64,000 nt of DNA from Nitrospirota bacterium (GTDB lineage: Bacteria > Nitrospirota > JACRHL01): assembly GCA_016212085.1 (NCBI GenBank), contig JACRHL010000021.1, forward strand, positions 27,925 to 91,924, given 5' to 3'. The number at the start of each line of letters is the position of its first letter. Positions within the stretch are counted from its first letter, which is position 1. A model generated the notes under the pieces. It saw only the letters and a list, made by a program, of their open reading frames with translations. It made no database searches and was not told where the DNA came from. This document shows positions 26,806 through 48,935 of the stretch, one piece after another. Position numbers and translations under genes: made by a program.

Positions 26806-27162
26806 ATGGCAGGATACGACCGGGAACGGGCGGACGACCGCCTTTCCGTGCAGATGGCCGCACGCATCCACTGTTATGGCGAGCGGTTCATCGGCACGGT
26901 GGTGAACCTGGGCGCCGGGGGGGCGTTCGTGCGTGCCGGCCGCACGCTGCCCATGCAGGTCCGCTGCGACCTGGTGGTCATCGTGGGCGACGGCGGCGAC
27001 CCGGAGCACTTGTTGGTGACCGGCACCGTGGTCCACCTGGCGGACGGCGGCATGGGCATCAAGTTCGACACCCTCGCGCCGGGGACGCTGGCGCGGCTGC
27101 TGGGCATCCTTTCCAGCGGCGGCACCAACCTGAAGCGCCGCCCCGTCGGATCGGGAGGCTGA
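26806..27162 (+). CDS. Single-domain PilZ protein
   Basis: ERADDR, NLGAGG, GMGIKF. Confidence 0.8.
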   Translation: MAGYDRERADDRLSVQMAARIHCYGERFIGTVVNLGAGGAFVRAGRTLPMQVRCDLVVIVGDGGDPEHLLVTGTVVHLADGGMGIKFDTLAPGTLARLLGILSSGGTNLKRRPVGSGG

Positions 27163-27166
27163 CGCC

Positions 27167-27583
27167 ATGTCCATCCCCGTCATCGAATGCATCAAGCGCT
27201 GCACCGCGAACCCGGCGTTCCTGGACCGTTTCTACGAACTGTTCACGAGCAACCCGGCGGTCCGCGAGAAGTTCTCCAAGACCGACTTCGACCGCCAGAA
27301 ATACCTGCTCGGCCACATGCTGGTGATGCTCATCAAGCACGCCTACGGCCTGCGCGGGGCCGACGAGCGCCTGACCGAGGTGGCGCGCCGCCACGGCACG
27401 GGCGACCTGAACATCCCCCGCTACATGTACAACGATTGGATCGACTGCCTGGTACGCGCGGTGCGCGAGACCGAGCCCAACCTCCCCGATGAGGTGATGG
27501 GCGACCTGCGGCGGGTCATGGAGGCGGAGGTGGCCACCTTCATCAGCCGCGCGGAAAACCCGACGAACGCCCCGGCCACCTAG
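27167..27583 (+). CDS. Single-domain globin
   Basis: FLDRFYELF, FSKTDFDRQK, proximal His in RRHG, W..CL. Confidence 0.85.
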   Translation: MSIPVIECIKRCTANPAFLDRFYELFTSNPAVREKFSKTDFDRQKYLLGHMLVMLIKHAYGLRGADERLTEVARRHGTGDLNIPRYMYNDWIDCLVRAVRETEPNLPDEVMGDLRRVMEAEVATFISRAENPTNAPAT

Positions 27584-27679
27584 GGCCTGTTGACAAGCCC
27601 CTGGGGCGACAACGCAATGCGTTGATTTTCATGATACATATCATGCTCCCCCGTGTGTCGGGGCGCTACGTTTGAATTG

Positions 27680-27757
27680 GGTGAGGGGGGGCTGGGCCAC
27701 GGCGGTTCTCCCCCATCGTACCGGCGAGGCCTGAGGATTCCGGTGCTCCCCCTCACC
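27680..27757 (+). ncRNA. Candidate structured small RNA, copy A
   Basis: Closing stem ggtgaggggg/ccccctcacc and two inner hairpins; homologous to 27847-27923; followed by a terminator. Confidence 0.6.
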
Positions 27758-27771
27758 TACTGACGGGTGAC

Positions 27772-27797
27772 GAAAAGGGCGTTCGTGCCCTTTTTTT
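27772..27797 (+). terminator. Intrinsic terminator after RNA copy A
   Basis: aaaagggc-gttcgt-gccc followed by T7. Confidence 0.8.
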
Positions 27798-27810
27798 GTG
27801 CAACATTCGC

Positions 27811-27838
27811 TTGCCTTACATTGACCGTCTGGTATACT
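27811..27838 (+). promoter_or_regulatory. Sigma-70-type promoter for RNA copy B
   Basis: TTGCCT-N16-TATACT, 8 nt before the closing stem. Confidence 0.65.
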
Positions 27839-27846
27839 CCCGCGCC

Positions 27847-27923
27847 GGTGGGGCGGGGTGGGGCCACGAGGTTCTCCCCCAATCTGACCGGCGAGCCCGT
27901 ACCATCCGGCGCCCCGCCCCACC
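27847..27923 (+). ncRNA. Candidate structured small RNA, copy B
   Basis: 14-bp closing stem ggtggggcggggtg/cgccccgccccacc; same core as copy A. Confidence 0.6.
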
Positions 27924-28079
27924 ACCCCACGGCCGGGCGGCGCGGTGGAGGCCGGTCTGCCCTTTCCGTGCATTTTTGTGACAAAAGGCAGTCCGAAACC
28001 GTTCCCGGGCGTGCTATGCTCCGGCCCTCGGGTGGCCGCCGGGGTGCGGAGGGCCGCCGCCGCGGCATTCCATGTGGAA

Positions 28080-28095
28080 TGGCCCGGAGCTTGCA
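28080..28095 (+). promoter_or_regulatory. Putative sigma-54 promoter
   Basis: TGGCCCG-N4-TTGCA. Confidence 0.6.
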
Positions 28096-28171
28096 CTTGG
28101 ATTTTGGTTGGATCCTGTGTCTGCGAGTGCCGCCCGTGGCGGCCAAACCCCAGTCGGAGATTCGCCCGATC

Positions 28172-28264
28172 ATGATGCAATCCCGCTCCATGCTGGCCCA
28201 GCTCATTTGCGCCACCTGCTTCACCCTGCTGTCCATGGCCTGGCTGCTGATCCTGGTCGCCTGA
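28172..28264 (+). CDS. 30-aa hydrophobic peptide (C-x12-LIL family)
   Basis: MMQSRSMLAQLICATCFTLLSMAWLLILVA; GC-rich third codon positions. Confidence 0.55.
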   Translation: MMQSRSMLAQLICATCFTLLSMAWLLILVA

Positions 28265-28465
28265 GCGCCCTTTTGCGGCGCCCCTCGTAACCTGCCGGCC
28301 CGCGCCCCGGCGGCCCGCCCCCGCCCAGCCCCGCTCCCCATCCCCCCCGTGTAATATCCGGCATCGGCGCCGAAAAATATTCACACCCCCCGCCGATTTT
28401 TCGCCCCCGCCCTGACCGTTATCATGTGACCCCCGCCCGCCCCGTGCTGGAATGCGGATATGGGC

Positions 28466-28577
28466 GGGTACCTCTCAAAACTGTCGCGAGCGGTCCGAGC
28501 GCAAGCCGCCCCGAGTGGAGCGGCGCTGCCACGCCGCGCAGGACCCGAAACATATCGCGGTGATAGGAGAGGTGCCC
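28466..28577 (-). mobile_element. MITE family A, internally deleted inverted copy
   Basis: gggtacctctcaaaac...agaggtgccc; interior matches the reverse complement of the 62491 copy. Confidence 0.75.
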
Positions 28578-28806
28578 ACCCGCCGGTGGCGCGGCGGGCA
28601 CCACCCCGGACGGATGGCGCGGCCGGCCCCCCGGCCCACGCGTCGCGCGCGTCCCCCGTTCCCGCCCACGCCTGAGGGCGGCCCCGCGCCCCGCCGGCGC
28701 ATCCGTGCGGCGGACCGGGCGGGATGCGGGGGCCGCCATGCGTTCGCGCCAACACCATGCCGGAGGGGCCCGGCGCACCGGGCACCGGAATCAAGGAACC
28801 CGTGTC

Positions 28807-28965
28807 ATGGAACGAACCCTGTTGTGGAGGCGTTTCGTCGCCGTGTCCGTCTTCATCGCCGCCCTGGCGGCCCTGGCGTGGTTCACCGGCTGTGCCATCT
28901 GCCCCGCCCCCGCCCTGGCCGGCGTACCCGCCGGGGCCGCGCGGGTGGCGCACTTGCTGCCATAG
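28807..28965 (+). CDS. 52-aa small membrane protein or lipoprotein
   Basis: AAGGA RBS, TM segment, FTGC. Confidence 0.45.
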   Translation: MERTLLWRRFVAVSVFIAALAALAWFTGCAICPAPALAGVPAGAARVAHLLP

Positions 28966-28977
28966 GGCGCCGGGGAC

Positions 28978-29013
28978 AAAAAAAGGGGGGAGCCCCGTGG
29001 CGGGACTCCCCCC
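28978..29013 (-). terminator. Intrinsic terminator for the 29047-30969 gene
   Basis: ggggggag...ctcccccc stem with an A7 run on the left. Confidence 0.75.
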
Positions 29014-29046
29014 GATGCCGGCCGTCCGTGGCCGGAAGTGGCCAGC

Positions 29047-30969
29047 CTACATGCCGAACAGGCGCTTGGCCAGGCCCGGCGGCATCCGCACCGGGTCCGG
29101 GCCGCCGGCGGCCCGGCGCAGATTCACCACCACCACGTCGGCGGTGAAGGTGGCCGTGGGCCCGTCCCAGGCGCCGTGGGCGGTCAGGTGGCGGCCCGCC
29201 GCGCCGTTCGCCAGGGCCGCGTCCAGCGCCGCCTGGAAGGTGGCGAAATCACCGAACACCCGGAGCGCGCCGCCCGCTTGCAGGGCGTACCTGCCGCCCT
29301 CCGCCGCCGGGACGACGCGGGCATCGGCGCCCAGGCCGGCCAGGTCGATCACCGCCCCCGCAACCACCACGTGGTGGCGGTGGGGGCTGGCGGACAGGTC
29401 GGGCACCAGGCCGCCGGGGGCGCTGACGGTGAACGGGGTGAGGTCCGCCGGGTGCCACTGGATGGTCAGGTTGGCGCGCGGCTCCGGCTCCACGGGCGGC
29501 TGGGCCAAACTCATGGCCAAAAAGTCCGGCGGCGCGGCGCCGAACGGCGCGGTGAGGCCGCGCACGCCCACCGGATCGCCCGCCGCCAGGGCCGACAGGT
29601 CCAGGGCCCCCGTGTCCACCCGGTAGGCGGCGGGGTCCGAGTCGTCCGCCGGGGTGGCGCCGGTGCCGGCGAAGTCGTAGATGTCCACCGGGCGGCCGTT
29701 GAGGGCGCGCAGGTCGAGGGTGAGGGTGCCGGCGGTGGTGGCCACCACCAGGCCGTGGGCGTGGGAGACCTCGATCCGCGCCTTGCCCTGGGTGGCATCC
29801 AGGGTGGGCGTGACGGACAGGTCGGCGGCGATGACGGCCGCCGTCTCCAGCAGGTCGCCCACCACGGTCACGCGGCCGCCCACGGACAGGTCGGCCGGGG
29901 TCATGGGCGCGCCCAGGGGGCCGGTGACGATCGTGTCCGGGCCGATGAGCACGGTGAGGGTGTCGCGCAGCAGGTCGGGCCGGCCGACGCCGCTGTCGAA
30001 GGACAGGACGGCGCCGCGCAGGGTGAGCTGGTCGCCCAGGCGGCTGGTCAGCACGCCGTGGGCCACGTCACGCTGGCCCCAGGGCACGCTGGAGCCGGCG
30101 CGCACCGTGCTCGCCAGCATGTGGCGCAGGGCGCGCTGCACCTGGCCGAAGGCCACCACCGGGCTGCCCGGCTCCAGGGCGGCCAGCGCCGCCAGGCCGT
30201 CGGCCCCGGTGTAGGCCACGCCGTCGATCTCGAAGGCCGTCTGCCCGTCCACCGCCACCGGGAAGTCGCCGAAGCGGTGCGCCGCCCCGTGGTGGCCGAA
30301 GGGCCGCACGTGCAGGGTGAACTCCGAATTGTCCAGGTCCACCCGGTCCAGCAGGCCGCGCAGGCGGTGGGGCTTGGCGAAGTCGGCATCCACCTCGGCC
30401 AGCAGCACCGGGTCGACGGTGACCACCGGCGCCGCCGGGATGGTGAGGTCCACGGCATTGGTGGCCGCCAGGTCGAAGTCGAACACCACGTGGGCGGGCA
30501 CGCCGGGGCGGATCAGGATGTGGTCCATCTCCTCCAGCTGCACCGCCATGGTCACCTGGGCCAGGGGGTTGCCGTCCGCATCCACCAGGGTGGCGGGGGT
30601 GGCGGCGCCGGCCACCTCGACCTGCACGTCGGCGGAGGTGTAGTCGAGCACCATCTCGGCGCCGGTGTAGACGCCGTCCGGCACCATGGCGGCGGTGAGG
30701 AATTCGGTCATCTCGGTGTACTGGGCGAAGTCCACGCGGGTGGACAGGGGCAGCACCTGCACCTGGGTGCCGTCGGCGCGGCTCAGGGTGAGGGAGGTCA
30801 CGTCCACCTGATAGGCGAGAAAATCGCCATCGGCGTCGGTGAGGCCGATGACCACCTCGCCCAGCCCGGTGGCGCCGCCGCCACAGCCCGGCAGCAGCGG
30901 CACGGCGGCCAGGGCCAGGGCGGCGCCCAGCGCGGCGAGCGCGCGGCGCATGCGGGAGAATACGTTCAC
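29047..30969 (-). CDS. DUF4382-like lipoprotein
   Basis: LLPGC lipobox; IGLTDADGDF, VDVTSLTL, FDFDL. Confidence 0.75.
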   Translation of the reverse strand: MNVFSRMRRALAALGAALALAAVPLLPGCGGGATGLGEVVIGLTDADGDFLAYQVDVTSLTLSRADGTQVQVLPLSTRVDFAQYTEMTEFLTAAMVPDGVYTGAEMVLDYTSADVQVEVAGAATPATLVDADGNPLAQVTMAVQLEEMDHILIRPGVPAHVVFDFDLAATNAVDLTIPAAPVVTVDPVLLAEVDADFAKPHRLRGLLDRVDLDNSEFTLHVRPFGHHGAAHRFGDFPVAVDGQTAFEIDGVAYTGADGLAALAALEPGSPVVAFGQVQRALRHMLASTVRAGSSVPWGQRDVAHGVLTSRLGDQLTLRGAVLSFDSGVGRPDLLRDTLTVLIGPDTIVTGPLGAPMTPADLSVGGRVTVVGDLLETAAVIAADLSVTPTLDATQGKARIEVSHAHGLVVATTAGTLTLDLRALNGRPVDIYDFAGTGATPADDSDPAAYRVDTGALDLSALAAGDPVGVRGLTAPFGAAPPDFLAMSLAQPPVEPEPRANLTIQWHPADLTPFTVSAPGGLVPDLSASPHRHHVVVAGAVIDLAGLGADARVVPAAEGGRYALQAGGALRVFGDFATFQAALDAALANGAAGRHLTAHGAWDGPTATFTADVVVVNLRRAAGGPDPVRMPPGLAKRLFGM

Positions 30970-48673: not shown

Positions 48674-48761
48674 TGCCGTATTTAGCGCGCCGCTAATCTG
48701 CCCCCATGCGGCCGGCAGCCCGATGGGCGGGCGCCCGGCCACCATGCACGGAGGGAGAACG

Positions 48762-48935
48762 ATGATGGAACGCGACTGGCCCTACCCGCCCCAATGGCAG
48801 GAGCGCCGCGAGGAGATGGCCCGCTGCGGATGCAGCCACTGCGACGCCCTGCGCGCCGACGCCCCGGCCAAGGCCGCCGCCCTGGCGCGCTACGTGGCGG
48901 CCCAGGGCACCGCCCCGGCGGAGGCGGCCCCATGA
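48762..48935 (+). CDS. 57-aa hypothetical protein with CxCxxC
   Basis: GGAGGGAG RBS; ATGA-coupled to the next gene. Confidence 0.65.
   Translation: MMERDWPYPPQWQERREEMARCGCSHCDALRADAPAKAAALARYVAAQGTAPAEAAP

Follow-up and report, generated by a model that had tools for sequence, protein, structure and literature searches.

Two structured elements of 77-78 nt lie side by side in a long intergenic stretch of this Nitrospirota genome, and the question they raise is whether they are genes for regulatory RNAs, parts of the neighbouring messages, or repeats at the level of DNA. A preliminary description, made from the letters of the window (the whole stretch of 64,000 nt analysed here), had presented them as twin RNAs, each with a long closing stem, two small hairpins, a C-rich linker and a loop that starts CGAG, and every one of these parts is present at 27680-27923. 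The window has a G+C content of 71% and comes from an assembly of 2.70 Mb in 23 contigs, in which no 16S rRNA was found. The host class is deep-branching and uncultured, with seven species-level genomes, this one included, in the collection that was searched, and we know of no regulatory RNA characterised in this lineage. The best reading of the two elements is that they are genes for small RNAs of a well-known functional type, belonging to a family that is new to Rfam.

Gene neighbourhood of the elements

The stretch of about 1.46 kb on the 3' side of a globin-like gene is free of long ORFs and contains the two elements (copies A and B), a 30-codon ORF, a MITE-like repeat and a 52-codon ORF. 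Apart from the elements themselves and the signals around them, the features of the locus are, from left to right:

GNAT gene, - strand, leftmost of the locus neighbours
ArfB gene, between the GNAT gene and the PilZ-domain gene
26806 (probable start), + strand, PilZ-domain gene, with TTGGGGGAA 4 nt 5' of the start
27167-27583, + strand, globin-like gene of the PA3967 type, second of the PilZ and globin-like pair and upstream of copy A
28172-28264, + strand, 30-codon ORF (P0004), GC3 28/30, with GGAG 12 nt upstream, 250 nt after copy B
28466-28572, repeat of about 107 bp, dispersed in the genome, its ends inverted (GGGTACCTCTC ... GAGAGGTGCCC), 540 bp from the twin elements
28807-28965, + strand, 52-codon ORF (P0005), GC3 46/52
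Convergent gene for a 661-residue protein with no known domain, after the stretch of about 1.46 kb

The globin-like gene lies directly 3' of the PilZ gene on the + strand, the pair spanning 26806-27583. Its product matches PDB 1tu9 (E 3.9e-14; GC3 of the gene 0.94), and the match to the Pfam Globin family, at E 0.0098, is below the cut-off. The same protein has six matches within its own genome, two of which are read through a TAG, and this suggests an expanded sensor family; a weak NosP-like match lies about 4 kb from the locus. The preliminary description had remarked that no transporter gene follows the elements, and indeed there is none among the neighbour families scanned. The neighbouring genes of the locus are not syntenic within the class (six other genomes), and the relatives of one neighbouring-gene protein, P0002, which occur in four of these six genomes, are on contigs that differ from those with globin-like relatives. 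In public genome contigs P0002 matches 56 loci spread over many phyla, which says little on the affiliation of the host.

The 30-codon ORF is probably a genuine small ORF, and the interval from 27962 to 28276, which covers it, is without an indel among the differences listed for the related strain found in public run X5 (see below). The predicted peptide is very hydrophobic, with a CxxC motif; a small membrane protein and a type-I-toxin-like peptide are both conceivable identities. Between this ORF and A or B, long complementarity was not found. The product of the 52-codon ORF has a hydrophobic segment at its N terminus as well as a GCAIC motif, and a two-way terminator-like hairpin lies on the 3' side of that ORF, at about 28975-29015. 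The dispersed repeat between the two ORFs gives at least 41 BLAST matches in its own genome, its own copy included, at 75-88% identity, and its depth in the metagenome runs rises to 147-700x where the baseline is 5-50x. In all probability it is a MITE. Copies A and B are not part of this repeat, though they lie in the same intergenic stretch.

Two paralogous elements with a common fold

A covariance model was built from the A/B pair (R1 in what follows). The two elements, their scores with this model and the candidate seed that each carries are:

27680-27757, + strand, copy A, element of 78 nt, a three-way junction in the consensus fold, R1 score 99.3 bits
27704-27715, + strand, GGTTCTCCCCCA in copy A, candidate seed, the longest block without a difference between A and B or, among the differences listed, in the two copies of a related strain
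27847-27923, + strand, copy B, element of 77 nt, the same architecture in the consensus fold, R1 score 93.6 bits
27870-27881, + strand, GGTTCTCCCCCA in copy B, candidate seed

Aligned by segments, A and B agree at 59 of the 79 columns, and a BLAST search of A against the whole genome returns B at E 1.2e-6 and everything else at E 0.09 or worse. The likeness is beyond chance, and the two elements are real paralogues. A has a closing stem of 13 bp (GGTGAGGGGGGGC/GCTCCCCCTCACC) and B one of 14 bp (GGTGGGGCGGGGTG/CGCCCCGCCCCACC). Within it, both copies have a first hairpin GGGCC/GGUUC, with the loop ACGGC in A and ACGA in B, and a second hairpin CCGG/CCGG, whose loop begins CGAG and is 15 nt long in A and 14 nt long in B; an unpaired C-rich run separates the two inner hairpins in both copies.

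RNAalifold, applied to the hand-segmented A/B alignment, gives the closing stem, GGGCC/GGUUC, the C-rich stretch and CCGG/CCGG as they were first read. The minimum-energy folds of the single sequences agree with this consensus in the closing stem and the unpaired C-run and differ from it in the interior, and the fold z-scores of the single sequences are modest (-2.0 and -2.4). The predicted mean unpaired probability of UCUCCCCCA is 0.92 in A, and that of the C-run is about 0.9 in B. The conserved core, which had been singled out for its complementarity to ribosome-binding sites, is thus predicted to be unpaired, and it is complementary to Shine-Dalgarno (SD) sequence.

Maintenance of the closing stem and strand of the RNA

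When the 14 positions of the closing stem are compared between A and B, nine pairs are identical, two have changed on both sides and are still paired (A-U/G-C and G-C/C-G), and two have changed on one side and are still paired (the wobble-type changes G-U/G-C and C-G/U-G), while the remaining pair is U-U in A versus G-C in B. Among the 13 pairs common to both copies, therefore, all four changed ones are still paired. The inner hairpins, of 5 and 4 bp, are identical in A and B and so yield no covariation information. The preliminary description had spoken of covarying stems: this holds for the closing stem, and the plural was an overstatement, the inner hairpins being invariant. The covariation amounts to very few events, in one paralogue pair and one related strain, and lies in the closing stem only; compensatory change of this kind would also be kept by a DNA palindrome.

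The G-U pairs speak to the strand. Read on the + strand, each copy has three of them, two belonging to the GGGCC/GGUUC hairpin; the same positions read on the - strand would give A-C mismatches, and the pairs therefore fit the + strand only. So far as sequence comparison can tell, the hairpin is maintained, and its pairing fits the + strand.

Conservation in a related strain

The stretch or part of it occurs in six public runs, all as contigs of DNA and none of them an RNA run; four are groundwater metagenomes from which this genome may have come. A 912-nt contig of run X5, a subsurface metagenome (record 19), spans 27474-28393, differs there by 58 substitutions and 34 gap letters, and represents a related strain that carries both A and B. 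Among the differences listed for this strain, five changes fall in the 155 nt of the elements and 26 events (17 substitutions and nine indel events) in 224 nt of non-coding flanks (27584-27679, 27758-27846 and 27924-27962), a contrast (5/155 versus 26/224; Fisher p = 0.0037) that assumes the list, which ends at 27949, to be complete up to that position, with 35 further differences lying beyond it. At the flank rate, the 31 substitutions among these would fit the remaining 444 nt. The changes inside the elements are:

27692 C>T, copy A, C-G becomes U-G
27699 A>G, copy A, first base of the loop, which becomes GCGGC
27859 T>C, copy B, U-G becomes C-G, in the same pair as the 27692 change in A
C inserted after 27869, copy B, loop ACGA becomes ACGAC
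27900 T>C, copy B, in the loop of the second hairpin

All five of these listed changes thus lie in loops or are swaps of C-G and U-G. The 12-nt block GGUUCUCCCCCA is unchanged in all four sequences, that is, in A and B of this genome and of the related strain, among the differences listed. The two copies differ from each other by 25%, and each differs from its X5 counterpart by about 3%; since both strains hold both copies, the duplication is older than the split between the strains.

Of the two elements, run X6 covers only the last 13 nt of B. In the hairpin after B, the X5 and X6 strains have nine inserted nucleotides at almost the same position (27936-27938), and their presence in both related strains means that the present genome has probably undergone a 9-nt deletion.

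Promoter and terminator signals

The signals around the elements, the two hairpins being read from folds, are:

27772-27797, + strand, intrinsic terminator after copy A, GAAAAGGGC-GTTCGT-GCCCTTTTTTT, a stem followed by T7
27811-27838, + strand, sigma-70-type promoter of copy B, TTGCCT, a 16-nt spacer with TG before the -10, and TATACT, ending 8 nt before B
27928-27977, + strand, terminator-like hairpin after copy B, CACGG...CCGTG followed by CATTTTT

The promoter motif that the preliminary description had placed just before B was confirmed, and a promoter scan of 27400-28400 reports it as the only sigma-70-like site, against a mean of 0.2 in shuffled sequences. In the related strain its -10 is unchanged and its -35 becomes TTGCCA, which is nearer to the consensus, while seven other positions around the hexamers have changed. 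Copy A has TACGTT at the place of a -10, 7 nt upstream, with no credible -35, and a better-looking motif (TTGACA-17-CGCAAT) farther upstream of A is deleted in the related strain. Without a convincing promoter that both strains share, A may derive from the 3' end of the upstream operon.

The terminator that had been described after A is likewise there. It was missed by the terminator scan because its A-T pairs use part of the T-run; in the related strain, the one difference listed in it is 27781 G>C at the top of its stem, with the T-run intact. Longer and less canonical than the terminator of A, the hairpin after B shows the poorest conservation in the related strains, where it has insertions of 9, 1 and 1 nt. 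Since A and B are each followed by a hairpin and then by TTTTTGTG, so that both units end alike, the duplicated unit took in the terminator. The generic layout of an sRNA gene, with a promoter and a hairpin with U-run, is present for B; A has the canonical terminator and an unconvincing promoter.

Search for known families and relatives

The family had gone unrecognised when first described, and the database searches agree. Rfam gives no match at gathering thresholds in the whole 64-kb window; at E<=10 the interval 27500-28150 has ten matches, all of them microRNA, snoRNA or lncRNA noise (best E 0.4), and at E<=1 the interval 28150-29060 has none. ARAGORN reports no tRNA or tmRNA gene in the window, and blastn against plasmid and phage collections gives no match to the twin elements. 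Membership of a dispersed repeat had been named in advance as an outcome that would speak against a new family; R1 finds two places only in the 2.7 Mb of the own genome, and these are A and B.

Farther afield, BLAST of 27680-27925 against 40 related genomes returns two short fragments only (26 and 47 nt; E 0.001-0.007). R1 finds nothing in the six other genomes of the class, each of which is its own genus, and in 150 other genomes of the phylum a single match of 25.9 bits (E 0.087) with many broken pairs. Run unfiltered on 20 loci (19 around globin-like matches, own-genome paralogues included, plus the locus of the match in genome G128) and on four loci near P0002 relatives, the model reports bare G+C hairpins only, the best at E 0.003. 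Two pattern scans brought no further copy: GGCCACGN{1,2}GGTTCTCCCCC occurs in 88 stretches of public genome contigs, none with the second motif nearby, and GGTTCTCCCCCN{5,9}CCGGCGAG in 89 stretches of public metagenome contigs, of which three have CCNCG upstream, three have a flanking 8-bp stem and none has both, so that all look like chance hits. The elements are apparently private to this lineage.

A C-rich block complementary to Shine-Dalgarno regions

It is quite possible, though far from assured, that A and B are a duplicated pair of trans-acting sRNA genes whose C-rich block pairs with G-rich SD regions. The two would then be non-coding RNA genes of the + strand, giving transcripts of about 120-130 nt each with the terminator, B from its own sigma-70-type promoter and A as the product of the weak TACGTT promoter 7 nt before it or as the 3' end of the PilZ/globin-like transcript. 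The three-way junction, very stable and rigid as predicted, would keep GGUUCUCCCCCA, and chiefly its C-run, unpaired between the small hairpins; the C-rich block would base-pair in trans with the SD regions (GGGAG, GGGGGAGAA) of target mRNAs and so block the start of their translation, probably with Hfq bound at the U-tail. Hfq is encoded in the genome (78.2 bits), as is CsrA (76.6 bits), and ProQ was not found in it.

As an example of a site complementary to the core, the preliminary description had pointed to GGGAGAAC before the ORF at 48762; the motif is found at 48753-48760, 1 nt before ATGATG, and GGAGGGAGAAC lies upstream of this ORF. Across the genome, GGGAG occurs within 20 nt upstream of 222 of the 2403 roughly predicted starts, compared with 1.1% of internal control windows, an enrichment that is partly circular because the presence of an SD sequence helped to choose the starts. 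Target prediction, which had been proposed as a check, did not single out translation starts by duplex energy: the 2403 predicted start regions have a mean of -13.8 and internal coding windows one of -13.9, and the tails of the two distributions are equal at every threshold tried. The best eight predicted targets have no common theme in Pfam (Memo/AMMECR1, Rnf, DUF4136, an ABC ATPase, ZnuA, TetR, a proteasome-type subunit and a protein of no family). A perfect complement of the 12-mer seed occurs only once elsewhere in the genome, antisense within a coding region.

Comparison of A and B with the 5' regions of the small-ORF, PilZ and globin-like genes gave complementary runs of 5-11 nt only, among them 8 nt at the PilZ ribosome-binding site. 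A perfect 11-nt complement of positions 27735-27745 of A (GAUUCCGGUGC, paired in the model) lies at 28782-28792, just 5' of the ribosome-binding site of the 52-codon ORF; it is absent in B and may be due to chance.

Two kinds of described sRNA resemble this scheme. RsaE/RoxS RNAs have C-rich regions that pair with G-rich SD sequences and block translation initiation, and RoxS responds to nitric oxide (PMC4409812). A and B are like these RNAs of the Bacillota in setting unpaired C-rich sequence against the SD, the pairing here being a prediction; they differ in having one C-run, in a three-way junction, where RsaE/RoxS have three to four C-rich regions in loops and linkers. The counterpart of the nitric oxide response would be the globin-like neighbour and the weak NosP-like match, which is an association only. 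A and B have no sequence or Rfam match with RsaE/RoxS, belong to another phylum and are tandem paralogues.

The CcsR1-4 or 'cuckoo' RNAs (ar14) of Alphaproteobacteria are tandem homologues directly on the 3' side of a small protein gene, partly derived from its 3' UTR, and each displays an anti-SD C/U-rich motif, with CCUCCUCCC in two hairpin loops (PMC8034643). They are thus, as A and B would be, tandem sRNAs near a small protein gene with an anti-SD motif. They carry CCUCCUCCC in loops, whereas A and B have UCUCCCCCA between hairpins, and their CIN1 loci have a DUF1127 neighbour, whereas the neighbours of A and B include ArfB, PilZ and globin-like genes and no DUF1127 match. Rfam gives no such match for A or B.

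Alternative readings

The two elements might act in cis, A as a 3' stabilising or processing structure of the PilZ/globin-like mRNA and B as a leader, possibly responsive to a ligand or protein, that controls read-through into the ORF at 28172-28264. The terminator-type hairpin directly after each element is the layout of a termination-controlling leader, A is without a good promoter of its own, and the small ORF that follows B is probably real by its GC3 and the lack of listed indels. A closing stem of 13-14 G+C-rich bp, however, is to judge from the folds far too stable for the P1 helix of a switch, the hairpin after B is what the related strains conserve least, and Rfam offers no riboswitch match. 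The promoter between A and B also means that they are not one tandem leader. On balance we consider action in cis unlikely. A protein-binding RNA, acting as a decoy or sponge (for example, of CsrA or Hfq) or as a scaffold, with mRNA pairing not the mechanism, is possible but of low probability. CsrA and Hfq are both encoded, GAGGA lies in the second-hairpin loop of A and GGAG in the loop of the hairpin after B, and the rigid three-way junction, which conserves ACCGGCGAG and the GGGCC blocks besides the C-run, could be a recognised shape. Known CsrA sponges carry many GGA motifs, yet there is about one per RNA here and none inside copy B itself. Equally improbable, in our estimate, is that A and B are the first members of a class of structured RNA not yet described. 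The junction would then do more than hold out an anti-SD seed: it would specifically recognise a protein or small molecule, in connection with the PilZ/globin-like signalling genes, with GGGCC, GGUUCUCCCCCA and ACCGGCGAG as the binding pocket.

It is also conceivable that the elements have no RNA function and are inverted repeats at the level of DNA, either a site bound by a protein or a duplicated palindromic remnant, for instance of a mobile element. The two arms of the closing stem form an almost perfect inverted repeat, the compensatory changes in it are what a DNA palindrome gives as well, and the repeat at 28466-28572, a hairpin-shaped MITE present in at least 41 copies, is 540 bp away. 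Such MITEs likewise enclose a small structured core within a long closing inverted repeat, but they come in many dispersed copies with common terminal inverted repeats, whereas A and B are two adjacent copies only, with terminal repeats common to no other locus and with arms that differ between the copies, unlike ends recognised by a transposase. Each copy, moreover, has three G-T oppositions, the C/T swaps opposite G in the paralogues and in the related strain fit an RNA of the + strand, and it is the unpaired interior rather than the arms that is most conserved. The G-U pattern, the variable arms and the restriction to two adjacent copies thus weaken this reading, which we hold to be decidedly unlikely.

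Guanidine-II riboswitches have a conserved ACGR tetraloop at the tip of both of their two hairpins, and lie upstream of guanidine exporter or guanidine-metabolism genes. The preliminary description had been reminded of them by the loops, and each copy does have one G+C-rich hairpin with a loop starting ACGG or ACGA. Only one loop of the two is ACGR-like, though, with five bases rather than four in A; that of the second hairpin is 14-15 nt long and starts CGAG. In the related strain the first loop is GCGGC in A and ACGAC in B, and is therefore not a conserved tetraloop; nor does a transporter or guanidine-related gene follow, the downstream sequence consisting of a terminator, a promoter, small ORFs and the MITE. 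On loop identity, loop conservation and gene context, and with no mini-ykkC or ykkC-III match at E<=10 in 27500-28150, we rejected a guanidine-II (mini-ykkC) or other ACGR-loop riboswitch, to which we give practically no chance.

Should A and B be a trans-acting sRNA pair, they would represent another independent origin of the strategy of RsaE/RoxS and CcsR, in a very G+C-rich genome with common G-rich ribosome-binding sites, and would open a way into the post-transcriptional control of a groundwater bacterium that is uncultured. Their reach is narrow, the element being found in one genome and one related strain.

Two minor observations concern the DNA around the elements. In runs X4 and X1, one contig each joins 27928 to 28129, skipping 200 nt; the shorter side of the join has only 21 letters, and G+C-rich DNA of a different organism has probably been matched there spuriously. 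Upstream of copy A, a 14-bp palindrome with an operator-like look (ATGATACATATCAT) lies at 27631-27644, and 27640 A>G in the related strain breaks it.
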